Source of the DNA: Candidatus Multivorans sp.
GTDB taxonomy: Bacteria; Acidobacteriota; Thermoanaerobaculia; Multivoradales; Multivoraceae
Direction: 5' to 3'
Length of the DNA stretch: 64,000 bases
Assembly: GCA_965224025.1 (NCBI GenBank)
Contig: OZ245033.1
Coordinates: 2,336,001-2,400,000 of the forward strand
The notes under the pieces are model-generated. The model did not search any database and was not told where the DNA came from. It saw nothing but the letters and a program-made list of their open reading frames with translations. Position 1 is the stretch's first letter. Each line of letters begins with the position of its first letter. A program made the translations under genes and the position numbers. Below are positions 43,572-63,160 of this stretch, one piece after another.

Positions 43572-44281
43572 TCACCATTGCCTCCCCTCGTCAGCAGTCG
43601 CTCGGCGATCGAGCTCCTTCAGCACCGCGGCCTCGATGGCGCCCACGCCGGCGAACACCCGGCGCCAGCGCAGCCGCCGGCCGCGCCTCTCCATCCCGCC
43701 GCCGTCCGCCCTCACCGCCCGAAGCGCGGCCCGGACCGCGGCGTAGTCCAGGCCGACGTATCCCGCGGGACCTGTCCGCCACTGTGTCTGCGCAGCCAGA
43801 AACACCCGCACCGCATCCCAGTTTTCCGGCAGCACCCAACATGAATCGTCCTCGCCCGGGAGTTCGCCCTCGATCCGGATTCCCAGCGCCGCGGCGTCTG
43901 CCGCTACCTCGTCGCCCCCTGAGCGGCCGGCGCACCAGTGCCGTCCGACGGCACGGAGGTTTTTCCCGGCAGGCCAGCCTGGAAACGCGCGTGAGCGTTG
44001 ATCGCCGCGCGCACGAAGTAGGGAATCCGCGCCAGCAGAGCGATGGTCTCGGGCGTGCACTCCAGCGGCTTGCCCTCGGCGTCCGAGACTTCGTCCCAAT
44101 CGTCGATCGCCGCCGCGAGATACGCCTCGTCGCTCTCGAGAGCCAGCTCACGGGCCCGGTCCGCGGACAGCAGCCGGAAGTGCAGCGTGCATTCCTGGCG
44201 CTCCGTACCGCCGGACGTCGGGACGTCGATCGGCGCCGGCGTCGGGTACGTCGCGTACGGATCGGCCAACCTGAACGTCAT
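43572..44281 (-). CDS. Tail assembly chaperones G (43904-44281) and GT via -1 frameshift
   Basis: G ends ...LPGKTSV. Slippery G-GGA-AAA at 43961-43967. The -1 frame continues GKNL...VLPENWDAVRVFLAAQTQWR...GLDYAAV (DUF1799-like). Confidence 0.85.
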
Positions 44282-45264
44282 CGGACCGACACCGTGATCT
44301 CGTCGTTGCCGGCCATCGGGAGCGCCCGGAACGGGATGCTCACCTGCTGGATGCCGCTGTCCTCGCCGTACGTCGGCTCCCCGATCTGGATGCGCGGACA
44401 GTCGATCTCGATCAATTTGCCCACGCTCGCGGCGGTGTCCGGACCGCCGTGGACGATCTCGAGCGCGTCCGTCGTGCCCGCCGCGGCCACGTCGAACGGG
44501 TTCCAGGTGGCGAGCGGCGACATGTCGAGCACGATCGTCCCGCTGGGATCGCGGTCCACGATCACCACCTCGTTGTCGGCGCCGATCACCTCGCGGTGCG
44601 TCACCTCGGCGGCCAGGTCGAGTTCGAACGACCGCATCTTGAGATTCGCCTGGCCGAACAGGCTCACGGTCGGCGTGTCCCGCGTCGACCCCGGGCGCGG
44701 CGCCTTGAACGCGGCGTAGTCGCCGGCGATCGCCGCCACGCTCGACGGAACCCGCCAGAGGCCGGTCAGCGTGAACCGCAGTCTCGGGATGTCCGCGGCC
44801 CGCAGGCTGAGCGCCACGCTGCCGCGGCAGCCGGCCAGCACGTGCTGCTGGCCGTCCCAGTTGCCGCGCACCGTCAGCGACGGCTCGGAGCCGGTGATCG
44901 GCTTGTACTCGACGAGGTTGTTGTGCGGATCGGCGGCGGCCTTCTTCTTCGAAGTCTCCGAGAATCCGCACGCGCGCAGCAGCCGGCCCCACCTCGGCGC
45001 CGTGATCGCCTTGGCGGCCGGATCGTATTTCCCGGGGCCGGCCAGCTCCACGCCGAACTCGATCTGTTGGTGGGTGTTGACCGGGATCTGGTCCGAGGAG
45101 CCGTAGTAGCTCCGCACCAGGTCACGGTCGGCCGTGCCGCCCGTCAGCGGCGTCAGCGACGGGTCGTGGGCAAGCATCGCGTCCGCGCCCGCCGTGGCCA
45201 CGGTGGTGCCGTAGACGGCCTCGATCGCCGCCAGGATCAGCTTTCGTCTCGCGCTCAGCGCCAT
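44278..45264 (-). CDS. Phage major tail tube protein
   Basis: RKLILAAIEAVYGT, ELAGPG..APRWGRLLRACGF and C-terminal GNDEITV; position upstream of the chaperones. Confidence 0.85.
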   Translation of the reverse strand: MALSARRKLILAAIEAVYGTTVATAGADAMLAHDPSLTPLTGGTADRDLVRSYYGSSDQIPVNTHQQIEFGVELAGPGKYDPAAKAITAPRWGRLLRACGFSETSKKKAAADPHNNLVEYKPITGSEPSLTVRGNWDGQQHVLAGCRGSVALSLRAADIPRLRFTLTGLWRVPSSVAAIAGDYAAFKAPRPGSTRDTPTVSLFGQANLKMRSFELDLAAEVTHREVIGADNEVVIVDRDPSGTIVLDMSPLATWNPFDVAAAGTTDALEIVHGGPDTAASVGKLIEIDCPRIQIGEPTYGEDSGIQQVSIPFRALPMAGNDEITVSVR

Positions 45265-46347: not shown

Positions 46348-46718
46348 GGCACGCAATCGAACATGTCCGAAAGGGCGTCTGGGCACCGGCCGTCATGGTC
46401 TGGGACGACCTGGCCGGCACCCTTGAGTGGACCCGCGGACCGGACGTCGAGGACCCGATGAATCCGATCCTGATGCAGGCCGTGGTCGACTCGGTCGAGC
46501 GGGTCCGCAGAGAGGGCCGCATCGTCCTCCAGACAGAACCCGAGCCCCACCGCTTCGTCCTCGAGGACGCCGCCCACGACCCGGCCGACTTCCTGCGCCT
46601 GATCGACTATGAACAAGGCTGGATTCGCTGCGGCGACGTACGCCTGCCGCCGTCGCTCCAGGACGTTGAGATGACGCCGCCCGAGGTCTTCGATCTGCCG
46701 CCCGGCGTGATCGCCTGA
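46344..46718 (+). CDS. Hypothetical protein coupled to the peptidase domain (candidate immunity protein)
   Basis: GTGA overlap with the peptidase stop; 124 aa, acidic. Confidence 0.55.
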   Translation: MRHAIEHVRKGVWAPAVMVWDDLAGTLEWTRGPDVEDPMNPILMQAVVDSVERVRREGRIVLQTEPEPHRFVLEDAAHDPADFLRLIDYEQGWIRCGDVRLPPSLQDVEMTPPEVFDLPPGVIA

Positions 46719-46747
46719 CGGCCCGGGACTGAGGAGCCACGCCTCAA

Positions 46748-47206
46748 TTGACGACGATCGACATCACGGTCGACGACGACGCGGTCTCCTCGGCGCTCGG
46801 TCGGCTCCAGCAGCGCGCCTCCGATTTGTCGCCCGCGATGGCAGTCGTTGCCTCCCTGCTGCGCGAGAGCGCCGAAGAGAGTTTCGAGCGCCAGGCCGCC
46901 TCCGACGGCACGCCTTGGGCGCCGCTCGCGCCGGCCACGGCAGCCCGTAAGGCCCGCAAGGGCTACTCCCCCCTGGCACTTGTGCGCGACGGTTACCTGC
47001 GCAGCCTCACCGCGCTGTCGACCCCTACTACGGCCGTCGCCGGCACCAACCTCATCTATGCCGCCACCCATCAGTTCGGCCACGAGCACGACAACCTGTT
47101 CGGCCGCGGCATCGAGGCCACGATCCCCGCTCGCCCCTTCCTCGGCCTGCGGCGCGACTACGTGGACGACATCGTCGACGTCATCATTCAGCACCTCACG
47201 GCCTAG
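46748..47206 (+). CDS. Phage virion morphogenesis protein (Mu gpG-like)
   Basis: DGTPWAPLAPAT, GTNLIYAATHQFG and IPARPFLG motifs. Confidence 0.9.
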   Translation: MTTIDITVDDDAVSSALGRLQQRASDLSPAMAVVASLLRESAEESFERQAASDGTPWAPLAPATAARKARKGYSPLALVRDGYLRSLTALSTPTTAVAGTNLIYAATHQFGHEHDNLFGRGIEATIPARPFLGLRRDYVDDIVDVIIQHLTA

Positions 47207-47391
47207 AAACGTCCCGCCAGATTCCGCGAAATTCCCGTTGGTACCGCCAACACCCTGTTGACGCCGTCCCTTCGGTCGCCGATTTGCGCAGCGTTTCTCG
47301 CACGAGATCTCTGCGGGTTTCTCCAATTTCTCTACTGTGTGAGCCACTAGCTGAGCCGCCCCCCCGCGTCCGACGGGCGTAGCGCAATCAC

Positions 47392-47421
47392 TTGACACCC
47401 CAGCGCCTTCCGGTGTCTAAT
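47392..47421 (+). promoter_or_regulatory. Putative sigma70 promoter of the aro-his-trp operon
   Basis: TTGACA at 47392, 18 nt spacer, TCTAAT at 47416. Confidence 0.55.
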
Positions 47422-47466
47422 CCGGCGTTCTGGAACACTTCGGTTCCCAGCGACCTTCGCCACGCC

Positions 47467-47571
47467 ATGAATACACCGGCCCGCGACATCGTGATCTCGA
47501 CCGTCTCCGTCGCTTCGACGACCAGCGTCGCGTCGAAGGTCTGGTGGGCTCACGGTCACGGCAAGGGCTGA
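47467..47571 (+). CDS. Leader peptide with tandem Trp and two His codons
   Basis: MNTPARDIVISTVSVASTTSVASKVWWAHGHGKG*. TGG TGG GCT CAC GGT CAC cluster just before the stop, upstream of the his/trp genes. Confidence 0.8.
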   Translation: MNTPARDIVISTVSVASTTSVASKVWWAHGHGKG

Positions 47572-47617
47572 ATCCGGGCCAAGTCCCGGTTCGTGGTCCG
47601 GGACGAGGGTGAACTAA

Positions 47618-47649
47618 GAAGACCTCCTTTCGGATCGAAGGAGGTCTTC
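47618..47649 (+). terminator. Attenuator / SD-sequestering hairpin
   Basis: 12 bp stem GAAGACCTCCTT / AAGGAGGTCTTC. The 3' arm contains AAGGAGG 7 nt before TTG 47652. The U-tract is weak. Confidence 0.75.
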
Positions 47650-47651
47650 CG

Positions 47652-49193
47652 TTGCACTCGACAACCGACGAACCGCGAACCGCCACGCCTGCGGAGGTCG
47701 CGCGGAGCGCGACGTTGGTTGCGTCGTTGACCGAGGCGCCCAGCGCGTCCGGCGACGAGTTGCGCGTGCTCTCGGAGCGCGCCGACTGCCTCGAGGTGCG
47801 CGTGGATCTGGTCGGTGAGATCGGCGCCGAGTGGTTGCGGGAACGATTTGCCGGCGAGCTGCTCTACACCTTGCGCAGCGAAGCGGAAGGCGGCCGCGGA
47901 CCGGTCGATGCGGGTCGGCGGGCCGTGCGGCTGGCTGCGGCCAACGGGTACGACCTGGTCGATCTCGAGGCAGACCGGGATCTCGGCCGCGACTCGCTGG
48001 CCGCGGTCGAGCCGAGCCGCCGGCTGGTGTCATGGCACGGCCGCGGCGCCAGCCTCAGGGCGCTGCGGGGCCGGCTCAGACAGTTCTCGGACGCGGAGGC
48101 GCGCCTCTACAAGCTCGTCACCGCTCCGAAGAGATCGGGTGAGGAACTGGCGCCGCTCGAACTGCTGCTCGAAACGGGCCGCACGGACGTCGCCGCGTTC
48201 GCGATGGGCGCCATCGGCGCCTGGACCCGGCAGGTGGCGCCACGGCTCGGGGCGCCGTGGGTCTACGCCGCCGCGGGCTCGGTCGCCGCCGCGCCCGGTC
48301 AACCGTCCATCGAGCGGCTGCGGGCCGACTACGGCCTGCCGGGCCTGCCCCAGGTGTCGAGGTTGTTCGGCGTCGTCGGGCGCCCGGCGGCGCACAGCCT
48401 GTCGCCGCGGCTCCACAACGCCGGCTACCGCGACCGCGGCGAGGCCGCGCTCTACGTCGCCTTCGACGCGCCGTGCTTCGAGACGTTCTGGAGCGAGGTC
48501 GCGCTGAGCGACTTCTTTGAGCGTGCGGGCATACCCCTGAGCGGCCTGAGCGTCACCGCGCCGCACAAGGCGGCGGCTCTGGCCGCCGCGGCGGAGGCCG
48601 GCGGCCTGGCGGCGCGAACCGGGGGCGCGAACACGCTGCTCCCGGGCCCCGGCGCCGCCGCCGACAGGCAATGGCGGGCCGAGAGCACGGACCCGGAGGG
48701 CGTCGTGGGGCCGCTGCGCCGGCGCGGGGTCGAGCTTTCGGGCCGCACTGTCGTGGTCATCGGCGCCGGCGGCGCCGGCCGGGCAGCGGCGGCGGGCCTG
48801 GCCGCCGCGGGCGCGGAGGTCGCGCTCGCCAACCGCACCGTCTCCAGCGGCCGGGCCGCCGCGGAGTTGCTCGGCGTGGCCTTCGTCCCGCTCGACGACC
48901 TGGCGCCCGGCGCGTTCGACGTCGTCGTCAACGCCACCTCGCTCGGCCACGATCCGGACGACCCGCTTCCCTGCGACCCGGATGCGCTGGGCGCCACGGC
49001 TGCCGCGGTGGAGCTGGTCTACGGCGGCGGACCGACCCCCTGGCGCCGGGCGCTTCGCGCGCGCGGCGTCCGGGTCGTGGACGGCCGGGAAGTGTTGCTG
49101 CACCAGGGTCTGGCGCAGTTCGCGGCGATGACGGGGAAGCGGCTTCCGTTCGAGGTCGGCGCCGCGGTGCTGGGGTTGGAGGCGACCCGATGA
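47652..49193 (+). CDS. Bifunctional type I 3-dehydroquinate dehydratase / shikimate dehydrogenase (AroD-AroE fusion)
   Basis: N-terminal DCLEVRVD, YTLRS..EGG, LVSWH and FAMG motifs. C-terminal HSLSPRLHN, SVTAPHK, IGAGGAGRA and VNATSLG motifs. Confidence 0.9.
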   Translation: MHSTTDEPRTATPAEVARSATLVASLTEAPSASGDELRVLSERADCLEVRVDLVGEIGAEWLRERFAGELLYTLRSEAEGGRGPVDAGRRAVRLAAANGYDLVDLEADRDLGRDSLAAVEPSRRLVSWHGRGASLRALRGRLRQFSDAEARLYKLVTAPKRSGEELAPLELLLETGRTDVAAFAMGAIGAWTRQVAPRLGAPWVYAAAGSVAAAPGQPSIERLRADYGLPGLPQVSRLFGVVGRPAAHSLSPRLHNAGYRDRGEAALYVAFDAPCFETFWSEVALSDFFERAGIPLSGLSVTAPHKAAALAAAAEAGGLAARTGGANTLLPGPGAAADRQWRAESTDPEGVVGPLRRRGVELSGRTVVVIGAGGAGRAAAAGLAAAGAEVALANRTVSSGRAAAELLGVAFVPLDDLAPGAFDVVVNATSLGHDPDDPLPCDPDALGATAAAVELVYGGGPTPWRRALRARGVRVVDGREVLLHQGLAQFAAMTGKRLPFEVGAAVLGLEATR

Positions 49194-50212
49194 AGATCTC
49201 CGCCGGCCTGCCGACCGGAGTGTCGGCTGCCCTCTTCGACAGCGTGAAGCGCCGCCGCCGGCTGGAGGCGCGTTTGACCGGGCTGCTCGAGCAACGCGGC
49301 TTCGGCGAGGTCCTTCTGCCCATCCTCGACTACTTCGAGCCGTACCGGCCGCTGCTGCAGGGGCGCCGGCTGGAGCAGCTCTACCGCTTCGTCGACCGGG
49401 ACGGTCAATTGCTCGTTCTGCGCGGCGACTTCACGCCGATGCTCGCGCGGCTGTTGGCCCCCCACCTGGACGACCTGGAACTGCCGCTCCGGCTCTACTA
49501 CCGCGGCGACGTGGTGCGGCACCAGCCTCTACGTCCCGGCCGGATGCGCGAGTACTCGCAGTTGGGCGCGGAGCTCTTGGGCGGCGACCGCACCGAGGCG
49601 GACGAACAGATGCTGACCCTGTTCCTCGACCTGCTGCTACAAGCCCGCGGCGGCGTCCCTGCGAACCCGGGTGGCGCGATCCGCGCACCCGGCGAAGTGG
49701 ATGACGCCGCGCTCCGGGTCGTCCTCGGCGTCGCCGGCGCCCTCGACGAGCCCCTGCTCTCCGCGGCCGGAGATGGCGCCGCCGGCGAACTGGCGCTGCG
49801 GATCGCAAGCCGCGACCGGCGGGCCGCGCGCCGGGCCGGTCTCGCCGATGTCGTAGAGGGCGGCTATCCGGAAGACGTCTCCGTGCTCGGGGGCGCCGCC
49901 GCCGCGGTGGCTGAACTGCTCTTGCTCCGCGACCGGCTTTCCGCCGAGTACCGCGACCTCGGCATCGAGGTAGAGGTCGATCTCGCCGAGTTCGCCGCCG
50001 CCGCCCTCGATCCGAGGGTCGGTGTTTCGGCTGGGCCGCGCGGCTACTACGACGGCCTCATGTTCGCGGCCTACGCGCCGGGTACGGCCTTGGCCTTGGG
50101 GGTCGGCGGCCGGTACGACAGGGTGTTCCGGTCGCTCAGCGGCGACTGCTCGGCGGTCGGCTTCTCGTTCGGCCTCGACCTGTTGACCGAACTGGCGGAG
50201 GGCCCGGCATGA
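49190..50212 (+). CDS. hisZ: ATP phosphoribosyltransferase regulatory subunit
   Basis: LPTGV, YRFVDRDGQLLVLRGDFT, REYSQLGAEL, YYDGLMF and GGRYD motifs; precedes a short hisG. Contains REP copy E. Confidence 0.9.
   Translation: MKISAGLPTGVSAALFDSVKRRRRLEARLTGLLEQRGFGEVLLPILDYFEPYRPLLQGRRLEQLYRFVDRDGQLLVLRGDFTPMLARLLAPHLDDLELPLRLYYRGDVVRHQPLRPGRMREYSQLGAELLGGDRTEADEQMLTLFLDLLLQARGGVPANPGGAIRAPGEVDDAALRVVLGVAGALDEPLLSAAGDGAAGELALRIASRDRRAARRAGLADVVEGGYPEDVSVLGGAAAAVAELLLLRDRLSAEYRDLGIEVEVDLAEFAAAALDPRVGVSAGPRGYYDGLMFAAYAPGTALALGVGGRYDRVFRSLSGDCSAVGFSFGLDLLTELAEGPA
49657..49696 (+). repeat. REP-like element copy E, in frame inside hisZ
   Basis: CCCTGCGAACCCGGGTGGCGCGATCCGCGCACCCGGCGAA, read as PANPGGAIRAPGE. 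Confidence 0.75.
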
Positions 50213-50847
50213 TCACGTTCGGCCTGCCGAAGGGACGCAACCTGGGACCGGCACGCGACGCGCTTGCCGCCGCGGGCATGGGTCTCACCGATCTCGATGC
50301 CTCGCGCCTGCGCCAGCGCTTCGGAGGCGTTGGGGTGTTGGGGGTCGAGGTCGAGGTGCTGCTGCTCAAGGACTGGGACCTGCCGCTCTATGTCGAGCAC
50401 GGGATCGTCGACTGCGCGATCGTCGGCAGCGACGTGCTGGAGGAGACCCGGCCCGACGTCTTCCAGCCATTGCGCCTCCTGGACGGCCGTAGCCGCCTGT
50501 CGTTGATTGCCGAGACGCCGGAACTGCCGCGGCGGAGCGGCCAACTCCGCGCGGCGACGCGCTATCCGGCGTGGGCGGCGCGGCTTCTTGCCGCCCGCAA
50601 CCTGCACGTCGAGGTGCTGAGCCTGACCAGCTCGATCGAACTCGGGCCCCTGCTCGATCTCACCGACATTGCGGTCGACATCGTGCAGACCGGCGCCACG
50701 CTCAGGACCCACGACCTGCACGAGGTCGAGGTGCTGGCAGAGGTGGCGCCGACCTTCGTGGTCAACCGGGCTTCGCTCCACGCCCACCGGCGCCGGCTGA
50801 GCCGGCTGCTGCGCGCGCTCGAAGAAACGGGGGCCGCCGGTGACTGA
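50209..50847 (+). CDS. hisG: ATP phosphoribosyltransferase, short form
   Basis: LPKGR, DLPLYVEHGIVDCAIVGSDVL and DIVQTGATL motifs. Confidence 0.95.
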   Translation: MITFGLPKGRNLGPARDALAAAGMGLTDLDASRLRQRFGGVGVLGVEVEVLLLKDWDLPLYVEHGIVDCAIVGSDVLEETRPDVFQPLRLLDGRSRLSLIAETPELPRRSGQLRAATRYPAWAARLLAARNLHVEVLSLTSSIELGPLLDLTDIAVDIVQTGATLRTHDLHEVEVLAEVAPTFVVNRASLHAHRRRLSRLLRALEETGAAGD

Positions 50848-52276
50848 GGTCCGTAGCGGGGGAGCGTTGCAGGTCCTGGCGGCGGACAGCCGTGCCGGGC
50901 GGGAGCGCCTGGGACTCCTCGACCGGCGCGGCCGGGGCGGTATCGCGGCCGAGATCGGCCGTGCCGCCGCGGAGATCGTCGACCGTGTCCGCAGCGGCGG
51001 GGACGCGGCCCTTGTCGAGGCGGTCCGCCGCTACGACGGCTTCGACGCGCCTTCGGCCGGCGCGTTGCGACTAGGCGGCGCCCCCGGGAACCCGGGTGAC
51101 GCGATCCGCGCCATTCGCGAACCACTCCGTGCGCCCGTCATCGGGCGCACGGATGGAACGCGGGCGTCTCGCCCGCATCCGGATTCTGAGAGCATCGACC
51201 CCGCCGTCCTCACCGCCATCGAACGCGCACGGACCGCCATCGACGTCTACCACCGCGCACAGCCGCACGGTCCGGGTGTCCAGCGCCTGGAACGGGACGG
51301 CGTGTCGATCGAGGAGCGCCGGCTGCCGATCCGCCGGGTCGGGATCTATGTGCCGGGCGGGCGGTTCCCCTATTCCTCTACGGTCCTGATGACCGCGGTG
51401 CCGGCACGGCTCGCGGGCGTCGAGGAACTCGTCGTCGCCACGCCGCCCGGTGCCTACCTCGAGAGCCCGGTGCTGCGGCACGTGCTCGACCTGGTCGGAG
51501 TGGACGAGGTCTGGGGGATGGGCGGCGCGCACGGCATTGCGGCGCTGGCCTACGGCACCGAGTCGGTCCGGCCGGTCGACCTGATCGCCGGCCCCGGGAA
51601 CGCCTGGGTGGCGGCCGCGAAGCAGCACGTGGCGGTCGACGTGGGCGTGGACCGCGACGCGGGTCCGTCCGAGGTCGTCATCGTGGCGGCCGATGGCGCT
51701 CCCGCCGGCTGGGTCGCGGCCGACCTGCTGGCCCAGGCGGAGCACGATCCCCTGGCGGTCGCGGTCCTGGTCACGGACTCCGCGGCGCTTGCCGACCGGG
51801 TCGCGTCGGAGGTGGACGGGCAGCTCGCGCAGCTTTCCACCGCCGACACCGCCGCGGCGGCGCTCGAAGCGCACGGCGCGGCCTTCGTCGCGGCCGACCT
51901 GGACGGTGCGCTCGTGCTGGCCGAACGGCTGGCGCCGGAGCATCTGCAACTGATCGGCGCGGACGCGGAAGCGCGCGCGGACGAGGTGCGCCATGCCGGC
52001 GCGGTGTTCGTGGGAGCTCCGTCGCCGGTGGTGTTCGGGGACTACGTGGCCGGACCCAGCCACGTGTTGCCCACGGGCGGCAGCGCTCGCTTCGCCTCCG
52101 GTCTCGGGATTGAGGACTTCGTGCGGCGCAGTCACACGGTTCGCTTTTCCGACGAGGCCTCGAAGGCTTGGGCCGGCGCCGCCGCGACGCTGGCGGCCAC
52201 CGAGGGCCTGGCGGCCCATGCCGCGGCGGCCAGATTGCGTCTCGGTGGGGGAAAGTGTCGGGAGGAAGAGCCGTGA
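50840..52276 (+). CDS. hisD: Histidinol dehydrogenase (with in-frame repeat insertion)
   Basis: VGIYVPGG, GPGNAWVAAAK, AGPSE, QAEHD, APEHL and GPSHVLPT motifs. Confidence 0.96.
   Translation: MTEVRSGGALQVLAADSRAGRERLGLLDRRGRGGIAAEIGRAAAEIVDRVRSGGDAALVEAVRRYDGFDAPSAGALRLGGAPGNPGDAIRAIREPLRAPVIGRTDGTRASRPHPDSESIDPAVLTAIERARTAIDVYHRAQPHGPGVQRLERDGVSIEERRLPIRRVGIYVPGGRFPYSSTVLMTAVPARLAGVEELVVATPPGAYLESPVLRHVLDLVGVDEVWGMGGAHGIAALAYGTESVRPVDLIAGPGNAWVAAAKQHVAVDVGVDRDAGPSEVVIVAADGAPAGWVAADLLAQAEHDPLAVAVLVTDSAALADRVASEVDGQLAQLSTADTAAAALEAHGAAFVAADLDGALVLAERLAPEHLQLIGADAEARADEVRHAGAVFVGAPSPVVFGDYVAGPSHVLPTGGSARFASGLGIEDFVRRSHTVRFSDEASKAWAGAAATLAATEGLAAHAAAARLRLGGGKCREEEP
51081..51182 (+). repeat. REP-like element copy F, near full length, in frame inside hisD
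   Basis: Colinear with copy A, including the identical CGCGAACCACTCCGTGCGCCCGTC..CGGGCGCACGGATGGAACGCGGGC core. Confidence 0.92.
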
Positions 52277-53385
52277 GCGCCTCCAACCAGGGCGCCGGCG
52301 CCTTCGTCAGGCCTGAGTTCCACCGCCTGCCGGCGTACTCGCTCCACCGGGTGACGTGCCGCTACCGGCTCGACCAGAACGAGGCGCCGTGGGATCTGCC
52401 GCGCGCGCTCAAGCGCGAGGCGCTGGCGCGTCTGGCCGAGCGCACCTGGGCCCATTACCCGGACTTCCACGCCGAGCGTCTGCGGCGTCTGCTCGGCGGC
52501 CTCAACGACTGGCCGGCGGAGGGCGTGCTGGTCGGGAACGGTTCCGGCGAGCTCCTCACGACGGTGCTCGAAGGCGTCGTGCGCCCCGGCCAGGAGGTGC
52601 TCGCCTGCGAGCCGTGCTTCAGTCTCTACGAGACCTTCGTCCGGCGGGCCGCCGGCGTGCCGCGGTTCCTCGAACCGGCGCCGGACCTGGCGCTGCAGAC
52701 CGACGAGCTCCAGGCCCAGACCGAGCGCGACCCGAGCCGGCCGGTGATCCTGTGTACGCCGAACAACCCGACCGGTACGGCCGCGGATCCCGCTACGGTG
52801 GAGCGCCTTCTGGGCGCACTCGAGGCGCCGCTGCTGCTCGACAACGCGTACGGCGAGTTCTGCCGCCACGACTACCGGCCGCTGCTGCGCGGCCACTCGA
52901 ACCTGATCCTGTTCCGGACCCTGTCCAAGGCCTGGTCCCTGGCCGGTATCCGCCTCGGCTACGTGCTTGCGGACCCGGACCTGGTGGCGGAGCTGATCAA
53001 GGTCAAGCTGCCTTACAACGTCGGCCACGCGGCGGCGGTCATCGGCGAAGTGGCGCTCGAACACGCCGACCGGCTTCTGCCGCGCGTCGCCCAGGTGCGG
53101 GCGCGCAGGGAGCAGTGGGCGGTCATGCTGCGGGAGTTCGGTTTCGAGGTCCTCGACTCGGAGGCCAACTTCCTGCTCGCGCGCCATCCCCGCTGCGCCG
53201 AGATCCGCGACGGTCTTGCCACCGGGGGTGTGCTGGTGCGCGACGTGAGCCGGTACCCGGGTCTGGCCAACTGCCTGAGAATCGGAATCGGCGGCGGTCC
53301 GGCGTTGCGCGCGACGCGACGCGCCCTGGTCGGGATGCTGACGCCGACCGGAAGCGACGGCACGAGTGAGGGAGAGATGCCATGA
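52273..53385 (+). CDS. hisC: Histidinol-phosphate aminotransferase
   Basis: LDQNE, GNGSGE, PNNPTG and RTLSKAWSLAGIRLGY motifs. Confidence 0.95.
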   Translation: MSASNQGAGAFVRPEFHRLPAYSLHRVTCRYRLDQNEAPWDLPRALKREALARLAERTWAHYPDFHAERLRRLLGGLNDWPAEGVLVGNGSGELLTTVLEGVVRPGQEVLACEPCFSLYETFVRRAAGVPRFLEPAPDLALQTDELQAQTERDPSRPVILCTPNNPTGTAADPATVERLLGALEAPLLLDNAYGEFCRHDYRPLLRGHSNLILFRTLSKAWSLAGIRLGYVLADPDLVAELIKVKLPYNVGHAAAVIGEVALEHADRLLPRVAQVRARREQWAVMLREFGFEVLDSEANFLLARHPRCAEIRDGLATGGVLVRDVSRYPGLANCLRIGIGGGPALRATRRALVGMLTPTGSDGTSEGEMP

Positions 53386-53981
53386 GACGAGCGTCCATCG
53401 ATCGAAAGACGTCCGAAACCCACGTCCGCGCCGACCTGTCGCTCGACGGCGGCCCGTGCCGGCTGGACACGCCGAACGGTTTCTTCTCGCACATGCTGGA
53501 CGCGCTGTCGCGCCACGGCGGTCTCGGGCTCGACCTCGAAGCCCACGGCGATACGGACATCGACCTCCACCACACGGTGGAGGACGTAGGCATCGTGCTC
53601 GGCGACGCGCTGCGGGAGGCCCTCGGCGACCGCGCCGGGGTGCGGCGCTTCGCCCACGCCTTCGCACCGCTCGACGAGGCGCTGGCGCGCGCCGTGATCG
53701 ACCTCTCGGGCCGCGGCTCGTTCCACTTCCGGTTGCCCGCGGAGCTGGAGCACGCCTGGGTCACGACCGAGTTCCCGCTCACCCTGATGGGCGACTTCTT
53801 CGGCGCCTTCGCCGGCCGCGGACGGCTGACGCTGCACCTGGACGTCCTCTGTGGCCGCAACCCGCACCATGTCGCGGAGGCGTCGTTCAAGGCGGTGGCT
53901 CTGGCGCTGCGGGAGGCGGTGTCCCTGCGGCCGGGGAATGCGGCCGAGGCGCCGAGCACGAAGGGGAGCCTGACGGCATGA
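53382..53981 (+). CDS. hisB: Imidazoleglycerol-phosphate dehydratase
   Basis: RKTSET, FFSHML, DLHHTVED and NPHHVAEASFKA motifs. Confidence 0.96.
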   Translation: MRRASIDRKTSETHVRADLSLDGGPCRLDTPNGFFSHMLDALSRHGGLGLDLEAHGDTDIDLHHTVEDVGIVLGDALREALGDRAGVRRFAHAFAPLDEALARAVIDLSGRGSFHFRLPAELEHAWVTTEFPLTLMGDFFGAFAGRGRLTLHLDVLCGRNPHHVAEASFKAVALALREAVSLRPGNAAEAPSTKGSLTA

Positions 53982-54676
53982 CCGGAGCGGCGAGCAATAC
54001 CCCGGCGAGCAACCCGGCAATCCACGCGACGGTGATCGACGCCGGCGTCGGCAACATCGGCAACCTGGTGCGGGCGCTCCGCCACTTGGGCGCCGAGGTC
54101 GAGACCACCTGCGACCCGGCGGTGATTCGCAAGGCTCGCTGCCTGGTGCTGCCGGGCGTCGGCGCCTTCCGGCCGCCGCGCGAAGTACTGCGCGGGGCGC
54201 CCGAGGAGGCGATCCGGACCGCGCTCGAAGACGGCGCCTGCCTGCTCGGCATCTGCATCGGCTACCAACTCCTGTTCGACAGCAGCGAGGAGTTCGGCAT
54301 GACGGACGGTCTCGGCCTTCTCACAGGCCGCGTCACCAAGTTGCCGGGCGGCGTGCCCTTGCCTCACATCGGCTGGAACCGCGTCTTCGGCGTCGCGGAT
54401 CATCCCCTGCTCGCCGGCGCGGCCGAGGACGACCACTACTACTTCGTCCACTCGTTCGCGCCCGAGGCCGTGCCGGAGGAGAGCGTGCTGGGCCGCTGCC
54501 GGCACGGCCGCAGTTTCCCCGCGATCACGGGCCGCGGCCGCATCGCGGGCACCCAGTTTCATCCCGAGAAGAGCGGCGCCGCCGGCCTGGGGCTGTTGCG
54601 CAACTACCTGGCCTGGGCCGGCGGCGCGGCTGACGGAGCCGACGGAGGAAACGGTGCAACTGCTGCCGGCGATTGA
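53978..54676 (+). CDS. hisH: Imidazole glycerol phosphate synthase, glutaminase subunit
   Basis: LPGVGAF, LGICIGYQ, PHIGWN, YFVHS and QFHPEKS motifs. Confidence 0.96.
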   Translation: MTGAASNTPASNPAIHATVIDAGVGNIGNLVRALRHLGAEVETTCDPAVIRKARCLVLPGVGAFRPPREVLRGAPEEAIRTALEDGACLLGICIGYQLLFDSSEEFGMTDGLGLLTGRVTKLPGGVPLPHIGWNRVFGVADHPLLAGAAEDDHYYFVHSFAPEAVPEESVLGRCRHGRSFPAITGRGRIAGTQFHPEKSGAAGLGLLRNYLAWAGGAADGADGGNGATAAGD

Positions 54677-55412
54677 TCTGCGCGGCGGTCAGATCGTGCG
54701 TCTCGAACGCGGCGACGACGGTCGGCGCACGGTCTACGGCGCCGATCCCTGTAACGCGCTTCGCCGCTACCGCCAGGCCGGGGTGTCCCGTATCCACATC
54801 GTCGACCTGGACGCGGCGTTCGGCGGCGCCCAACAGCGCGAACTGGCCGGGGAACTCGCGCGGCGGGCTGCGCCCGGCGGTATTCAGCTCGGTGGCGGCC
54901 TGCGCGACCGCGAGTCCGTCGAGTGGGCCTTCGCCGCCGGCTGCGAGCGGGCGGTGGTGACCTCCCTGATCGTCCGCAACTTCGACGTGTTCGCCGGCCT
55001 CTGTCGCGACTACCCGGGGCGCATGGTGGCGGCGCTCGACATCGACGGCGGCGAAGTGCGGCTGGCGGGCTGGACCGAATCGGCCGACCGCTCGCCCGCC
55101 GCCCTGTGCGCGCAACTTGCCGGACTGCCGATCGCGGCCGTGCTGGTCACCGACATCTCGCGCGACGGGATGATGCAGGGCCCGAACATCGACCTGGCCT
55201 GCGAGATCGGCGCCATGGCAGGCGCGCCGGCGATCCTCTCGGGCGGCGTGCGTTCGGCGGCTGACCTGGAGGCCGCGGCCCGGCGACCCGAGCTCGAAGC
55301 CGCGATCGTCGGCCGCGCGCTCTACGACGGTTCGCTGACCCTCGACCAGGGGATAGCGGCCTGCGACGGGGCGGGAACACGCGCCGGAGCCGCTTCGGGG
55401 AGCGCGTCGTGA
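54654..55412 (+). CDS. hisA: ProFAR isomerase
   Basis: [23 protein letters not shown] and TDISRDG motifs. Confidence 0.95.
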
Positions 55413-56197
55413 GAGCCACCATCGAACCGACCGGCCTCACGCGCCGCATCATCCCCTGCCTGGACGTAGCCGCCGGCCGGGTGGTCAAGGGCGTCCAGTT
55501 CAAGAACCTGACCGATCACGGCGACCCGACCGAGGCCGCGGCCCGCTACGCCGCGGAAGGCGCCGACGAGATCGTGTTCCTCGACATCACCGCCGCGCCC
55601 GAGCGGCGCGACACGGACCTCGACTGGGTGCGCCGGACCGCCGAGCAGGTGTTCATTCCGCTCAGCGTCGGCGGCGGCGTGCGCAGCACGGGCGACGGCC
55701 GCAAGTTGCTCCTCGCCGGCGCCGACAAGCTGGGGATCAACACCGCCGCGGTCGCCGAGCCCGAGCTGCTGACGCGCCTCGCCGAGCGCTTCGGAAGTCA
55801 GTGCGTCGTGCTCTCGGTCGACGCCAAGCGGCACCAGGAAGCCGGGGCCGACCAGAGCTGGGAGGTCGTCACGCACGGCGGCCGCACGCCGACCGGGCTC
55901 GACGCGCTGGAGTGGATCGAGGAGGGAATCGAGCGCGGCGCCGGCGAGATCCTGCTCACCAGCATCGACAGCGACGGCATGAAGAGCGGTTACGACCTGG
56001 AGCTGCTGCGGCGGGCGTCGGCGCTGTCGCCGGCGCCGGTCATCGCCTCCGGCGGCGCCGGCACCCTGGAACACCTGGCCGACGCCCTGGAGACCGACGC
56101 CGCGGCCGTGCTCGCCGCGTCGATCTTCCATCAGTCCACCTACTCGGTGGGCGCGGTCAAGGAGTACCTCGGCCGCCGCTATCCGATCCGCATGTGA
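55409..56197 (+). CDS. hisF: Imidazole glycerol phosphate synthase, cyclase subunit
   Basis: [26 protein letters not shown] and LAASIFH motifs. Confidence 0.97.
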
Positions 56198-56220
56198 TGA
56201 GGAATCGAGGAGACCAGGAC

Positions 56221-56283
56221 ATGACGGCGACGGCGATCGACCCCGCGGCGCTCACCTACTTCGACCGAGGTCTGCTGCCGTGA
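56221..56283 (+). other. 20-codon duplicate of the HisI N-terminus as a separate mini-ORF
   Basis: MTATAIDPAALTYFDRGLLP* with its own RBS (GAGGAG). The stop overlaps the GTG of hisIE. Confidence 0.75.
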
Positions 56284-56933
56284 CCGCAACCGCCATCGAC
56301 CCGGCGGCTCTCGCCTACGACGACCGGGGCCTGCTGCCCGTCGTGGTTCAGGACGTGCTCTCGGGCGCGGTGCTGATGCTTGCCTGCGCCAACCGGGAGG
56401 CGGTGGAGCTCACGCTCGCCACCGGCGAGGCCCACTTCTACAGCCGCTCGCGGCAGGAGCTCTGGCGCAAGGGCGCGACCTCGGGCAACACGCTGGCAGT
56501 GGTCGAAGTGCTCCAGGACTGCGACCGGGACGCGCTCCTGGTGCGGGCGCTGCCGGCCGGTCCTGCCTGCCACAACAACACGAGGAGCTGCTTCGAGCCG
56601 AACGCCGCCGAGTGCGAACTCGGCTGGCTGGCGCGTGTGCTCGCCGAACGGGCGTCCGCGTCGCCGGAGGCGAGCTACACGGCCCGCCTCCTCGACCAGG
56701 GAGTCGACCGGATCGCACGCAAGGTCGCGGAGGAAGCGGGCGAGACCGTGATCGCCGGCGTCCGGGCCGACGCCGAGCCCGAGTCAGCCGAGCGCCGCGC
56801 CGATCTCGCGGCCGAAGCCGCCGATCTCGCCTACCACCTTCTGGTGCTGCTCCAGGCGACCGGCGTCGGGATCGCCGACGTGGCCGCCGAGTTGGGTCGC
56901 CGCCACCACGCCGCGGGAAGGTCGTCGTCATGA
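56280..56933 (+). CDS. hisIE: Bifunctional PR-AMP cyclohydrolase / PR-ATP pyrophosphatase
   Basis: SRSRQELWRKGATSGN, DCDRD, GPACH, SYTARL, KVAEEA and EAADLAYH motifs. Confidence 0.95.
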   Translation: MTATAIDPAALAYDDRGLLPVVVQDVLSGAVLMLACANREAVELTLATGEAHFYSRSRQELWRKGATSGNTLAVVEVLQDCDRDALLVRALPAGPACHNNTRSCFEPNAAECELGWLARVLAERASASPEASYTARLLDQGVDRIARKVAEEAGETVIAGVRADAEPESAERRADLAAEAADLAYHLLVLLQATGVGIADVAAELGRRHHAAGRSSS

Positions 56934-57001
56934 GCGCGCGCGGCAGTGCCCCTGGGAACGCGGGCGTCTCGCCCGCACTCCGAGCCGGGAGTCCATCATG
57001 A
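56930..57001 (+). repeat. REP-like copy G (56949-56983) inside a 23 aa mini-ORF bridging hisIE and trpE
   Basis: MSARGSAPGNAGVSPALRAGSPS*, with ATGA overlaps at both ends. Confidence 0.8.
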
Positions 57002-58487
57002 GCCGGCCCGCCGCGGCCATCGCCCATACGCGGGAGTTCCTGGCCGACACCTCGACGCCGCTCGGCGTCTACAGCAAGCTGGCCGCGCATGCGGAGGGCG
57101 ACTCCGGGGCGCGGCGCTTTCTGCTCGAGAGCATCACCGGCGGCGAGCACGTATCGCGCTACAGCTTTCTCGGCGCGAGCCCGTCCCAGGTCTGCCGCGT
57201 GTACATCGACCGGCTCGAGACCCTTGACCTCCGTTCCGGCGGCGGCGTTCAGGTGGAGGCCGGCGATCCACTGCCGAAGCTGCGGCGTCTGCTCGACGGT
57301 GTGACCGCGCATCCGCCGCCGCCGCTGCCGTTCGCGGGGGGTTGGACCTTTGCCTTCGGCTTCGACGCGATCCGGCTCGTCGAGCCGTGCCTGGTCGATC
57401 ACTCGGCCGGCCGGCCACCCGACCCGTTCGGCCTGCCGATCGCGATCCTCGCCCGCTTCGACGACGTGCTCGTGTTCGACCACGCCCGCCAGCGCATCGT
57501 CGCGGTGGCGAACGAGATCGAGGGCGAGTCGACGGCAGCGGAGGCCGAAGTCCGGCTCGATGCGCTGCAGGCGGTTCTCGAGAGCCGCGGTGAGGCGATG
57601 GCGGCGAGGGTCGAGGACCTCGGCGTCAAGGCGGAGACCGCCGACCCCACCCTGAACGACGAGGAGCACAGCCGGGCGGTCAACGCAGCGAAGGAGTACA
57701 TCGCCGCCGGCGACATCTTCCAGGTCGTGCTGGCACGGCGCTGGAAGATCGACCTGGACGTGCCGCCGGCCACCGTCTACCGGGCGTTGCGCCTGGTCAA
57801 CCCGTCGCCGTACATGGTGCTCTTCGAGGCGCCGGAAGTGTCGTTGATCGGTGCTTCACCCGAGATGCTGGTACGGCGCACGGGGAGGCGCCTCGAGGTG
57901 CGGCCGATCGCCGGCACCCGCCCGCGCGGCAGGACCGCGGCGGAGGATCGGGTCCTGGCCGAGGAGTTGATGGCGGACCCGAAGGAGCGCGCGGAGCATG
58001 TGATGCTGGTCGACCTTGGCCGGAACGACCTCGGGCGGGTGGCGTCGCCCGGCGGGGTTTCGGTCGCCGACTTCATGGTGATCGAGCACTACAGCGACGT
58101 GATGCACATCGTCAGCTCGGTCGAGGCGGAGCAGTCCGCCGAGGCCGGAAACGGCGCCGGCTCGGCCCTCGACGCCCTCTTGGCCTGCTTCCCGGCCGGC
58201 ACGCTGTCCGGGGCGCCGAAGATCCGCGCGGTCGAGATCATCGACGAACTCGAGCCGGAGGCGCGGGGCATGTACGGCGGCTCGGTGGGCTACTTCTCGT
58301 TCGGCGGCGACATGGATGCCTGCATCACGATCCGGACGCTGGCGGTCGTGAACGGCGAAGCCTCGATCACCGCCGGCGGCGGCATCGTCGCCGATTCCGA
58401 CCCGGCGCGCGAGGCTCAGGAAACCCGCGACAAGGCCGCGGCGTTGCTGCGGGCGGTGGCGCTGGCGCGTGACCTGGAGGGCCGGGC

Positions 58488-58491
<4 letters not shown>
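56998..58491 (+). CDS. trpE: Anthranilate synthase component I
   Basis: FLLES, GDIFQVV, NPSPYM, KERAEHVMLVDLGRND and PAGTLSGAPK motifs. Confidence 0.96.
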
Positions 58492-59093
<602 letters not shown>

Positions 59094-59219
59094 CTAGGCG
59101 CGACGATGGAACATGCCGGGCTGTACCTGACTGAGGAGCAACGACTCACGCGCGATGCACCGCCGGTCGAATGCCGCGGAGTTTCTCCGCGGACTGCCGG
59201 AACTACTGTGAGGCGACGA

Positions 59220-60260
59220 ATGACTGATCTCGATCTTTCGACCCTGTTGCGAACGGCGATCGCCGGCGAGGACCTCCCCGCCGCGACGGTGGAGGAGCTG
59301 TTCGGCCGCCTGATGGACGGCGAACTCTCCGAGGTGTGGAAGAGCGCGTTCCTGGTCGCGCTGGCGGCCAAGGGCGAGTCGGTGGGCGAGATCGCAGGCG
59401 CCGCCCGGGCGATGCGGGCGCGGGCGGCGCGGGTGCGGCGCACGAGTTCCGGGGTGATCGACACCTGCGGCACTGGCGGCGACGGCCGGGGCACGTTCAA
59501 CATCTCGACCGCGGCCGCGCTGGTGGCGGCGGCGGGCGGCGCGCGGGTGGCCAAGCACGGCAACCGCGCGGTGTCGAGCCGCTCCGGTTCGGCGGACGTG
59601 CTCGACGCTCTCGGCGTGCAGCTCTCCGGCGACACGGCGGCGCTCGGGCGTTGCCTCGACGAGGTCGGCATCGCGTTTCTGTTCGCGCCCATGCTCCACC
59701 CGGCCATGGCCCAGGTGATGCCGGTGCGGCGCGAGCTCGGCGTGCGCACGCTGTTCAACGTGCTGGGGCCGCTGACCAACCCGGCGGGCGCGAAGCGGCA
59801 GTTGATCGGCGTCTTCGCGTCGGAGTTGGTCGAACCGATCGCGCACGTGCTGCTCGAGCTCGGAAGCGAGCACGCCCTGGTCGTTCACGGCGACGGTCTG
59901 GACGAGATCACGACCACCGGGACGACCGCGGTCGCCGAGGTGCGGGGCGGCGAGGTCCGCACGTTCGAAGTTCATCCGCGCGACTTCGGGATCGCCGAGG
60001 CGTCGCCGGACGACCTGGTCGGCGGCGACCCCGAGCGGAACGTGGAGCTGATGCGGGGCGTGCTGGGTGGCGGCGGCGGCGCCCTTGCCGACATCACCTG
60101 CCTCAACGCCGGGGCCGCGCTCTTGGTCGCCGGCAGGGCGGACGACCTCGCCGCGGGTGTTGCCGCCGCATTCGAGGTTCAGCGCTCGGGAGCGGCCGCC
60201 GGCAAGCTCGAACAGCTCGCGGGTTGGTCCGGCTGGGAGCACGGAGGCGGTGGAGACTGA
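59220..60260 (+). CDS. trpD: Anthranilate phosphoribosyltransferase
   Basis: DTCGTGGD..FNIST, KHGNRAVSSRSGSAD and GPLTNP motifs. Confidence 0.96.
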   Translation: MTDLDLSTLLRTAIAGEDLPAATVEELFGRLMDGELSEVWKSAFLVALAAKGESVGEIAGAARAMRARAARVRRTSSGVIDTCGTGGDGRGTFNISTAAALVAAAGGARVAKHGNRAVSSRSGSADVLDALGVQLSGDTAALGRCLDEVGIAFLFAPMLHPAMAQVMPVRRELGVRTLFNVLGPLTNPAGAKRQLIGVFASELVEPIAHVLLELGSEHALVVHGDGLDEITTTGTTAVAEVRGGEVRTFEVHPRDFGIAEASPDDLVGGDPERNVELMRGVLGGGGGALADITCLNAGAALLVAGRADDLAAGVAAAFEVQRSGAAAGKLEQLAGWSGWEHGGGGD

Positions 60261-60261
60261 G

Positions 60262-61230
60262 GTGTCCGAAGTACCCGACATCCTGCGCCGCATCTGCGAA
60301 CAGCGTCGCCAGCGCGTCTCGCCCGCATCTGGCTCCGCCCCTGGGAACCCGGGTGGCGCGATCCGCGCACCCGGCGCGCCGACGGGGCTCGGATCGCGCC
60401 ACCCGCGAACCACTCCGGGCACCCGTCATCGGGCGCCCGGATGGCACCCGGGCATCCTGCCCGCATCCGGCTCTGCCTCGCCAGGCCTCGCCGCCGACGC
60501 TCCCGGCCGCCGTTTCCTCGACGCCATCTCCACCCGTCGCGGCCGTGCCGTGATCGCCGAGATCAAGATGGGCTCGCCCAAGCTCGGCGACCTCCGCGGC
60601 CTCTTCGACCCGGTCGCGCGGGCCGAAACCTACGCGGCGGCCGGCGCCGCCTGCCTGTCGGTGGTGGTCGAGCCGGACCACTTCTACGGCAGCTACGAGC
60701 TGCTCGCGGACTGCGCCGCCGCCTCCGGCCTGCCCGCGGTGGCGAAGGATTTCGTGGTCTCCGACGTGCAGCTCGAATGGGCGCGCGACGCCGGCGCCTC
60801 CGCGGTCCTCCTGCTCGCCGCGCTCTACGATGCCGCGGAGCTGCGGCGACTGGCGGCGCTTGCCCGGGGCTTGAGTCTCGTGCCCCTGATCGAGGCTCAC
60901 GACGACGAGGACTTCGAGAAGCTGCGGCCGAGCGGTCGCGACGGAGACGGGGGCGGCGACCACGAATGGGAACTCGTCGGGATCAACAACCGCGACCTCC
61001 GCACCTTCGAGGTCGACCTGGAACGGAGCGCCGACCGCGTCGGCCGCCTGCCGGCGTCCGCTCTCAAGGTCGCCGAGTCCGGGATTCACAATGCCGCCGA
61101 CGTTGCGAAGCTGCGCAGGGCCGGTTTCGACGCCTTCCTCATCGGCGAACGCCTGGTGCTCTCCGGCGACCCGGCGGCCGCGCTCGCGGAACTGCTGGGC
61201 GAGCCGGCAATCTCCGGAGTGACCCCATGA
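60262..61230 (+). CDS. trpC: Indole-3-glycerol phosphate synthase (with in-frame repeat insertion)
   Basis: DILRRI, IAEIKMGSP, KDF, GINNRDL and VAESGI motifs. The start could instead be GTG 60250. Confidence 0.93.
   Translation: MSEVPDILRRICEQRRQRVSPASGSAPGNPGGAIRAPGAPTGLGSRHPRTTPGTRHRAPGWHPGILPASGSASPGLAADAPGRRFLDAISTRRGRAVIAEIKMGSPKLGDLRGLFDPVARAETYAAAGAACLSVVVEPDHFYGSYELLADCAAASGLPAVAKDFVVSDVQLEWARDAGASAVLLLAALYDAAELRRLAALARGLSLVPLIEAHDDEDFEKLRPSGRDGDGGGDHEWELVGINNRDLRTFEVDLERSADRVGRLPASALKVAESGIHNAADVAKLRRAGFDAFLIGERLVLSGDPAAALAELLGEPAISGVTP
60314..60471 (+). repeat. REP-like element copy H (composite), in frame inside trpC
   Basis: GCGTCTCGCCCGCATCTGG, then CCCCTGGGAACCCGGGTGGCGCGATCCGCGCACCCGG ... 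CGCGAACCACTCCGGGCACCCGTCATCGGGCGCCCGGATGGCACCCGGGCATCCTGCCCGCATCCGG. Confidence 0.9.

Positions 61231-61864: not shown

Positions 61865-61868
<4 letters not shown>
61227..61868 (+). CDS. trpF: Phosphoribosylanthranilate isomerase
   Basis: [24 protein letters not shown] and [11 protein letters not shown] motifs. Confidence 0.95.

Positions 61869-63156
<1,288 letters not shown>

Positions 63157-63160
<4 letters not shown>

Follow-up and report, generated by a model that had tools for sequence, protein, structure and literature searches.

In the his attenuator of Salmonella and E. coli (hisL; Rfam family His_leader), a leader with seven His codons in a row stands before a chain of alternative helices, in which B:C together with D:E gives readthrough, and C:D together with E:F gives termination. 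Multivalent attenuators occur in enterobacteria in thrL (Thr plus Ile) and in ilvL/ivbL (Leu, Val and Ile), and the amino acids read by each of them share one branched pathway. Leader-peptide attenuation is documented mainly in Proteobacteria, Actinobacteria and some Firmicutes. The Trp and His pathways are linked by phosphoribosyl pyrophosphate (PRPP). Here we analyse a stretch of 64,000 nucleotides (nt) from Candidatus Multivorans sp. (GenBank assembly GCA_965224025.1, contig OZ245033.1, positions 2,336,001 to 2,400,000 of the forward strand; this whole stretch is called the window below), in which a short leader precedes 17 genes on the + strand that run to the end of the window in the order aroDE-hisZGDCBHAFIE-trpEGDCFBA (Pfam assignments). 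The leader is very likely a two-input, ribosome-mediated leader-peptide attenuator controlling this aroDE-his-trp operon. A first-pass annotation of the same DNA, made from the sequence alone, had proposed that a single leader with Trp and His regulatory codons fronts a merged aro-his-trp operon, and both the translation and the Pfam assignments agree with it.

On the comparison with these systems, the architecture appears closest to that of the multi-helix his attenuator, and the logic closest to that of thrL and ilvL. As in hisL, a leader with His codons precedes more than three alternative helices in a chain, and a ribosome at the stop codon would force the terminator; unlike in hisL, there are Trp codons as well and only 2–5 His codons, no helix is detectable from the regulatory codons to the next segment, the terminator contains the first gene's Shine-Dalgarno (SD) sequence and start codon, no Rfam model matches, and the phylum is Acidobacteriota. 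As in thrL and ilvL/ivbL, codons for several amino acids stand in one leader and a shortage of any of them would derepress the shared operon, but the inputs come here from biochemically separate pathways, joined only by the operon fusion and PRPP. In trpL of E. coli, tandem Trp codons likewise lie near the end of a short leader, and the position of the ribosome sets terminator or antiterminator. Leaders of the trpL type, including those of Actinobacteria, are the subject of excerpts of PMC4833913 and PMC1262725. The present leader differs from them in having five segments rather than four, which would invert the default of an untranslated leader, in its added His codons, and in placing his and shikimate genes under the same control. 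Leaders whose regulated hairpin conceals the first gene's SD include, according to excerpts of PMC1262725, the actinobacterial LEU element and ileS T-boxes, and the hairpin described here resembles these, and the ermC type, in that respect; it differs from them in being a canonical intrinsic terminator as well in most relatives, and in that the sensor consists of amino-acid-specific codons instead of responding to an antibiotic or a tRNA. According to excerpts from one of three papers (PMC4833913, PMC2965389, PMC1262725), essentially no acidobacterial attenuators had been annotated by 2010. The control principle is classical; for its two-amino-acid Trp/His version no report was found, and neither this RNA, nor an acidobacterial occurrence, nor 'Candidatus Multivorans' was found in the open full-text literature.

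The observations behind this reading are the open reading frame (ORF) of the leader with its codons, their conservation, four conserved and partly covarying helices, the mutual exclusivity and energies of these helices, and their geometry relative to the stop codon. From these we infer translation of the leader ORF, stalling of the ribosome, the order in which the helices form kinetically, and how the switch acts in the genus of the window. The leader ORF encodes MNTPARDIVISTVSVASTTSVASKVWWAHGHGKG and ends in WWAHGHGKG before the stop codon; its sole Trp codons are at 47542-47547, and its sole His codons at 47551-47553 and 47557-47559. The promoter, the ORF, the cluster of Trp and His codons, the GTCCCGG/CCGGGAC hairpin (47583-47589 and 47598-47604) and the hairpin arm with AAGGAGG are all found where the first-pass annotation had put them.

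Related loci place the window in Acidobacteriota, class Thermoanaerobaculia, 'Candidatus Multivorans', and all of their records are metagenome-assembled genomes (MAGs). Within the genus of the window, 23 of 25 loci have a leader ORF ending in (S/A)WW(A/V/T)(H/R)GHGKG (searched as a pattern with WW), and the remaining two (L003 and L017) have a one-Trp version of the same type of tail. The N-terminal two thirds of these peptides are variable, with length differences that stay in frame. This goes as far as a leader of 97 codons, compared with about 34, in L002 (genome G003), where a long in-frame insertion separates the kept MNTPAR start from the kept WWAHGHGKG tail; among all relatives the leader ORF measures 12 to about 97 codons. 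Outside the genus the leader peptides are unrelated except for a W/H-rich tail (for example ...QWRWHGHVHP, ...GPWWGWMHHHV, ...GTWRRAHHHAVS, ...HGWWWHGVHHFGS and, in reversed order, ...THAHRHSTWAWPERR), so that Trp and His codons are kept across an order and beyond while the other residues change. In L144 and L149 (genomes G174 and G122) the His codons precede the Trp codons, in peptides of the form MRMYG(T/P)HAHRH..WAWP..RR; in both, a -10-like box (TAGGAT) ends only about 7 nt 5' of the leader ATG, and the leader mRNA may therefore be leaderless.

Frames were also assigned by a rule blind to W and H, which takes the stop codon nearest to the start of the RNA model and counts the last 16 codons. 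By this rule at least one Trp and at least two His codons occur in 36 of the 37 distinct leader tails before aroDE or hisZ, a set in which some loci end at aroDE and his genes behind it are directly seen only where the flank allows. The sole miss (L067) is a wrong-frame pick, and its correct tail reads ...CWRSSAHHHAH. The pooled tails contain 11.8% W and 18.8% H, compared with 0.64% and 2.16% in the proteins of the operon in the window. Conservation of these codons upstream of orthologous operons was the first check that the first-pass annotation had suggested, and it comes out in favour of its proposal. The only leader ATG that does not share the frame of its WWAHGHGKG tail is that of L146 (G066:C1:386600-390600), where a genome of the same genus carries the switch a second time, 24 kb away from the other copy; this second switch fronts aroDE-hisZ-hisG matches that are fragmented, in what looks like a decaying duplicate operon.

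The codon content of the leaders was compared with the genes behind them. Six operons show no his gene downstream, and their tails contain 3 (L099), 1 (L083), 2 (L072), 0 (L079), 1 (L069) and 0 (L148) His codons; in the first five of these, aroDE-trpEGD or trpE comes after the switch and the locus contains no his gene. At most one His codon is therefore present in 4 of the 6 his-less operons, as against at least two in 36 of the 37 tails where his genes follow or may follow. In L148/L151 (genome G119, from another family of the class) the leader MNASRNSWWFRRS (...SWWFRRS) stands before aroDE-trpE, after which come unrelated genes, and it contains Trp codons plus one Phe codon and zero His codons. 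Three loci of that same family (L147, L150 and L152, from genomes G116 and G055) have leaders ending in ...AYYYGFYT or ...FSFYYGYYT before a chorismate mutase gene, which in G116, the one case extended, is followed by the gene for 3-deoxy-D-arabino-heptulosonate 7-phosphate (DAHP) synthase. These look like candidate Tyr/Phe attenuators on a related RNA scaffold. In four loci the Trp/His switch itself is found downstream of aroDE: hisZ comes immediately after it in L045, L027 and L057, and trpE follows it in L072. Leader codons that follow the cargo of the operon are the pattern that sensing at the level of codons would predict, although the lineages that display it are related and the counts are not independent events.

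The same data bear on the idea that the tail WWAHGHGKG acts as an arrest peptide while still nascent, or as a small protein with a function of its own, for example one sensing free Trp like TnaC, whose codons would not report tRNA charging at all. Members of the genus share the last 10 codons almost without change, third positions included, in comparison with 72-88% identity of their aroDE proteins, which suggests constraint beyond codon identity; this invariance of the nucleotides may instead reflect constraints on the RNA or on spacing next to the first segment of the switch (segment B, below). Between families nothing but the Trp and His residues is retained, and their spacing, their neighbours and their order (His before Trp in L144/L149) vary, so the peptide sequence is not conserved beyond codon identity in the way that a TnaC-like mechanism would call for. 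The codon content moreover shifts with operon content, including the Tyr/Phe leaders before chorismate mutase. An arrest peptide is accordingly regarded as very improbable here, and the codons as the more plausible sensor.

Aligned over the region between stop codon and tail, 32 leaders (alignment A2) share five conserved segments, B, C, D/E, F and G, all of them 3' of the stop codon. The consensus is GCCGGG right after the stop codon for B, GUCCCGGC for C, CCGGGACGAGG for D/E, CCUCCUUCCGG for F, which resembles an anti-SD, and CCGGAAGGAGG followed by a U-rich tail holding the start codon for G. In the window the first hairpin mentioned above pairs C with D. The second hairpin, reported in the first-pass annotation as 12 bp at 47618-47649 with the SD in its 3' arm, has that position and that SD but folds as 13 bp (47618-47630 with 47637-47649), and AAGGAGG lies 7 nt 5' of the TTG start at 47652. 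Since it copies G, the SD arm, imperfectly, D/E can pair with F in its place, in the window through 10 pairs around one C:C mismatch. Two sets of helices are in this way mutually exclusive, B:C with DE:F (ON) and C:D with F:G (OFF).

The switch elements chosen in the first-pass annotation were different ones. CCGGG just behind the stop codon (segment B) and the decoy of the SD arm, CCGGGACGAGG, had been left unpaired there; the pairings proposed instead draw on the K-V-W codons and on the variable N-terminal part, AGGTCT at the K-V-W codons being paired with AGACCT in the 5' arm of the second hairpin. This pairing exists in the window but is not conserved, AGGTCT being found before the Trp codons in only 1 of 25 same-genus leaders, that of the window itself; the alternative pairings of CGAAGGTC/GACCTTCG/CTTCGACG likewise exist in the window and are not conserved. 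As an anti-sequestor, the proposed combination (AGGTCT:AGACCT, and CGAAGGTC with 47452 or 47513) was rejected, since in addition to the lack of conservation its logic is inverted: a ribosome stalled at the Trp codons would cover it.

Pairing was counted in A2 and in a second, model-based alignment of 48 hits (A3). For the ON set, 95.3% of the cells are paired in A2 with double changes at 4 of 16 pairs, and 89.2% in A3 with double changes at 7 of 16; the corresponding values for the OFF set are 97.0% with 6 of 18 pairs in A2 and 96.4% with 11 of 18 in A3. Individually, B:C is paired in 94.8% (A2) and 91.0% (A3), with compensatory changes, DE:F in 95.6% (A2) and 88.2% (A3), and F:G in 96.6% with double changes at 8 of its 11 pairs (A3). 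Controls in which the segments were slid gave 33-67% paired for all four counts. Mutually exclusive helices with a terminator or SD sequestor are thus supported by covariation (89-97% paired, 4-11 pairs with double changes), and the ON helices covary less than the OFF helices. In L144/L149 all five segments are recoded to a CGGGG/CCCCG core; inspection of the sequences suggests that the same four pairings are possible there, in a register only partly captured by counting in fixed columns.

A covariance model of the switch (R1) matches the window once, at 47570-47658 (68.5 bits, E 1.4e-16), with no second copy of the switch within the window. Of the 83 other loci searched it matches 40. Run over the whole genome of the window, it finds only the two aroDE leaders, and in a sample of 151 genomes from the class it has hits in 41, among them 23 of 23 from the family of the window. 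Conservation is far stronger in the RNA 3' of the stop codon than in the peptide, which could be expected if this RNA were a riboregulator binding a ligand, a tRNA or a protein (a riboswitch, or a T-box-like or TRAP-like element) next to an incidental ORF. The Rfam search however returned no relevant family (His_leader, Trp_leader or T-box) in 46500-48500 at E up to 10, and no family at gathering score in the loci of five relatives. The four mutually exclusive helices account for all the conserved segments, leaving no conserved loops or bulges, and the ORF, its frame and the position of its stop codon beside B are conserved, with codons that track the pathway. We give a binding riboregulator hardly any weight, and return to the ribosome as the reader of the leader.

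The geometry around the stop codon is consistent with this role. In the 27 correctly framed leaders measured, B starts 0-6 nt past the stop codon (2 nt in the window), so that only a ribosome reaching the stop would mask it. In tails with His codons, the last of them stands 9-18 nt before B; in the window this distance is 17 nt, the His codons being 17-23 nt and the Trp codons 32 nt before B. The helix energies in the window are -8.1 (B:C), -14.4 (C:D), -12.7 (DE:F) and -21.1 kcal/mol (F:G), and the median energies outside the genus are similar. Before G is made, the ON state (-20.8 kcal/mol) is favoured over C:D alone (-14.4 kcal/mol), and with B masked C:D beats DE:F; the full-length OFF state reaches -35.5 kcal/mol. 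When 46 leaders were cut before G, the minimum free energy (MFE) structure was the ON fold in 36 of them with B free, and C:D in 24 of them with the stop codon plus 12 nt masked; 17 of the 46, among them the window, gave both correct folds. Folding of the window's leader with the ribosome-covered part masked, as proposed in the first-pass annotation, thus switches as expected for a ribosome at the last His codon and at the stop codon, but fails for the first Trp codon in a long context.

The mechanism that would follow from these properties is a kinetic one. RNA polymerase would initiate at the TTGACA/TCTAAT promoter, and a ribosome would translate the 34-codon leader. With charged tRNA-Trp and tRNA-His both plentiful, the ribosome would reach the stop codon and its footprint would cover B, C would then pair with D, and F would be left free for G. 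The resulting F:G helix is a GC-rich hairpin that would bury the SD and start codon of aroDE and, through the U-tract that follows it in most relatives, stop transcription (OFF). With either charged tRNA scarce, the ribosome would stall at the Trp or His codons and B would stay free; B:C would form first and release D/E, which would capture F on its emergence, before G is made. The terminator or sequestor could then not form in time, so that the operon would be read with its SD open (ON). Since either stall would be sufficient, the device would be an OR gate.

Several observations weigh against this reading, or limit how far it can be pressed. No SD is recognisable 5' of the leader ATG in the window. 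Taken over its full length, the leader has an unexceptional MFE (z -1.55, with 13 of 200 shuffles folding equally well). A3 was fitted to the OFF structure and holds two spurious reverse-strand rows, and the ON helices are so strongly conserved that few compensatory changes are available, at 4 of the 16 pairs in A2. With B masked, DE:F instead of C:D is the MFE structure in about 20 of the 46 leaders; the two helices are nearly isoenergetic there, and the earlier synthesis of C:D would have to decide. The full-length RNA always folds to F:G, whatever the ribosome mask, so regulation would have to be kinetic. In a longer context, a mask at the first Trp or the first His codon still gives C:D as the MFE structure; only a mask at the last His codon gives ON, DE:F being predicted with that codon in the A site and G unmade. 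A helix from the coding region to B, of the trp 1:2 or his A:B type, was not detected (duplexes compared with shuffles, mean z -0.06, n=32, 6 at z < -1), and an untranslated leader would consequently default to ON, unlike that of E. coli trp. The match between codons and operon has exceptions as well: L099 keeps HHH and L072 two His codons, yet no his gene follows within either locus. In the genomes of both exceptions hisD was not found. It was present in 1 of the 5 genomes with his-less aroDE operons (by both protein and PF00815), and no histidinol dehydrogenase was found, by the HisD of the window or by Pfam PF00815, in the genomes of L099, L083, L069 and L072 (G041, G043, G044 and G045). 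Missing hisD together with his-less aroDE-trp operons could mean histidine auxotrophy or merely incomplete MAGs, and is not evidence of auxotrophy. Lastly, the tail after the hairpin in the window has only 4 U in 8, and the terminator scanner makes no call there.

This last point concerns the output of the switch. In the genus of the window, at least 5 U in 8 are found after the hairpin in only 1 of 8 leaders (median 4), compared with 32 of 38 leaders outside it (median 6), where the scanner calls the hairpin of L080 terminator-like. The weak U-tract noted in the first-pass annotation is therefore a feature of this genus, and not of most homologous switches elsewhere. The canonical U-tracts of most switches outside the genus suggest that the ancestral output was a classic terminator doubling as SD sequestor; in the genus of the window, termination may have weakened, with SD occlusion or Rho taking over. 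A stronger version, in line with the preference of the first-pass annotation for translational or Rho-dependent control over intrinsic termination, would keep the same sensor but have the genus act mainly by making the aroDE SD and start codon hidden or accessible; in place of intrinsic termination, Rho would end transcription of the operon when it is not translated. The eroded U-tract and the absence of a scanner call would fit it, as would the extra GAAGA/UCUUC pairs that lengthen the stem in this genus at the expense of the former U-tract, and the location of the SD and TTG start, either within the hairpin or right behind it. On the other hand, F:G always wins at equilibrium, so a switch acting on translation alone would still depend on a kinetic window or on ribosomes keeping the hairpin open, and the homologous switches of other genera carry canonical terminators. 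We consider this translational output unlikely as the main mode, though a good deal less so than the two alternatives to codon sensing discussed above.

A broader interpretation would see in the attenuator a class-wide and undescribed family of Thermoanaerobaculia, made of reprogrammable five-segment attenuators that are retargeted by codon swaps (Trp plus His for aroDE-his-trp, Trp alone for aroDE-trp, Tyr/Phe for chorismate mutase-DAHP synthase), with no first helix overlapping the codons, an ON default when untranslated, an OR gate over two pathways, and one genus in transition to SD occlusion or Rho. Taken as a whole this is put forward tentatively, with somewhat less than even confidence. 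The Trp/His leader already gives a concrete and comparatively well-supported attenuator family for an uncultured acidobacterial class, in which a single leader would integrate two unrelated amino acids after an operon fusion. The change of leader codons with operon content across lineages amounts to a natural experiment on attenuator evolution, and one lineage appears to lose the U-tract while retaining SD occlusion. In consequence, about 40 small ORFs and their RNAs that carry no annotation in public MAGs can be labelled, and the scaffold would be a compact, codon-programmable OR gate for synthetic biology.

The coordinates of the leader elements and of the operon are collected in Table 1.

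Table 1. Leader elements, switch segments and operon genes in the window (position 1 is its first nucleotide).
Feature	Position	Strand	Description	Basis
Promoter, sigma-70-type, -35 box	47392-47397	+	TTGACA, 18-nt spacer to -10	sequence; transcription start putative
Promoter, sigma-70-type, -10 box	47416-47421	+	TCTAAT	sequence; transcription start putative
Predicted hairpin in 5'-untranslated region	47426-47452	+	GGAAC/GUUCC core, 5' of leader ORF	MFE fold
Leader ORF	47467-47571	+	ATG 47467, 34 sense codons, TGA 47569-47571	translation
Segment B	47574-47578	+	CCGGG, 2 nt past stop codon; pairs with C (ON)	A2/A3 pairing, energy
Segment C	47583-47589	+	GUCCCGG; pairs with B (ON) or D (OFF)	A2/A3 pairing, energy
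Segment D/E	47598-47608	+	CCGGGAC GAGG; D with C (OFF), D/E with F (ON, as putative anti-terminator and anti-sequestor)	A2/A3 pairing, energy
Segment F	47618-47633	+	GAAGACCUCCUUUCGG, anti-SD-like strand; pairs with D/E (ON) or G (OFF)	fold, A2/A3 pairing, energy
Segment G	47637-47654	+	3' arm of hairpin with SD AAGGAGG 47638-47644, then eroded U-tract CUUCCGUUG including TTG start 47652-47654	A3 pairing, energy
aroDE	47652-49193	+	aroD-aroE fusion (3-dehydroquinase + shikimate dehydrogenase), first operon gene, TTG start 47652	Pfam PF01487, PF08501, PF01488, PF18317
his gene block	49190-56933	+	exact starts unrefined	Pfam
hisZ	to 50212	+	start not fixed; listed ORF 48671-50212 overlaps aroDE	Pfam
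hisG	50209-50847	+		Pfam
hisD	50840-52276	+		Pfam
hisC	about 52356-53369	+		Pfam
hisB	53382-53981	+		Pfam
hisH	to 54676	+		Pfam
hisA	54654-55412	+		Pfam
hisF	55409-56197	+		Pfam
hisIE	56280-56933	+		Pfam
trp gene block	56998-63987	+		Pfam
trpE	56998-58491	+		Pfam
trpG	58488-59093	+		Pfam
trpD	59106-60260	+		Pfam
trpC	within 60067-61230	+		Pfam
trpF	to 61868	+		Pfam
trpB	61865-63160	+		Pfam
trpA	to 63987	+		Pfam

A consensus scanner makes no promoter call at the leader, where the -10 box has a C at position 2. In 43 of 46 related leaders a TTGAC[AC] box occurs 74-217 nt 5' of the RNA motif, and in 19 of the 46 it is joined by an nAnnnT box at N16-19. This recurrence supports the TTGACA-N18-TCTAAT promoter, poor as its -10 box is in the window. 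Between the putative transcription start and the leader ATG, where the window has its predicted 5' hairpin, relatives seemed to carry a hairpin of different sequence. Inside the operon, terminator-like sites are not above chance (3, with 5.2 expected).

The second aroDE leader detected by R1 in the same assembly is on contig 2 (L113, G000:C2:38172-39846). Its switch scores 70.9 bits, its leader ends in ...AQAWWAHGHGKG, and the aroDE behind it is 87% identical to that of the window. The contamination of the assembly is 5.66%, so L113 may belong to a second strain or species and not be a true paralogous operon. The neighbours of the two copies differ. Phage-like genes lie directly 5' of the leader promoter in the window (Phage_tail_S at 46748-47206 on the + strand and Phage_tube_2 at 44278-45264 on the - strand), and the second copy is preceded instead by the 3' end of an apparent ketoacyl-synthase-like gene. 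A prophage or its remnant may therefore have inserted 5' of the operon.

At the 5' end of aroDE, in 47680-47720 of the window, there is a unit of about 24 nt (...CGGAGGTCGCGCGGAGC...) with an SD-like GGAGGT. It is single in the window and tandem in some relatives (seen in L113 at 1600-1680, and in the upstream extracts of L009 and L019), and could also pair with the anti-SD-like segment F.

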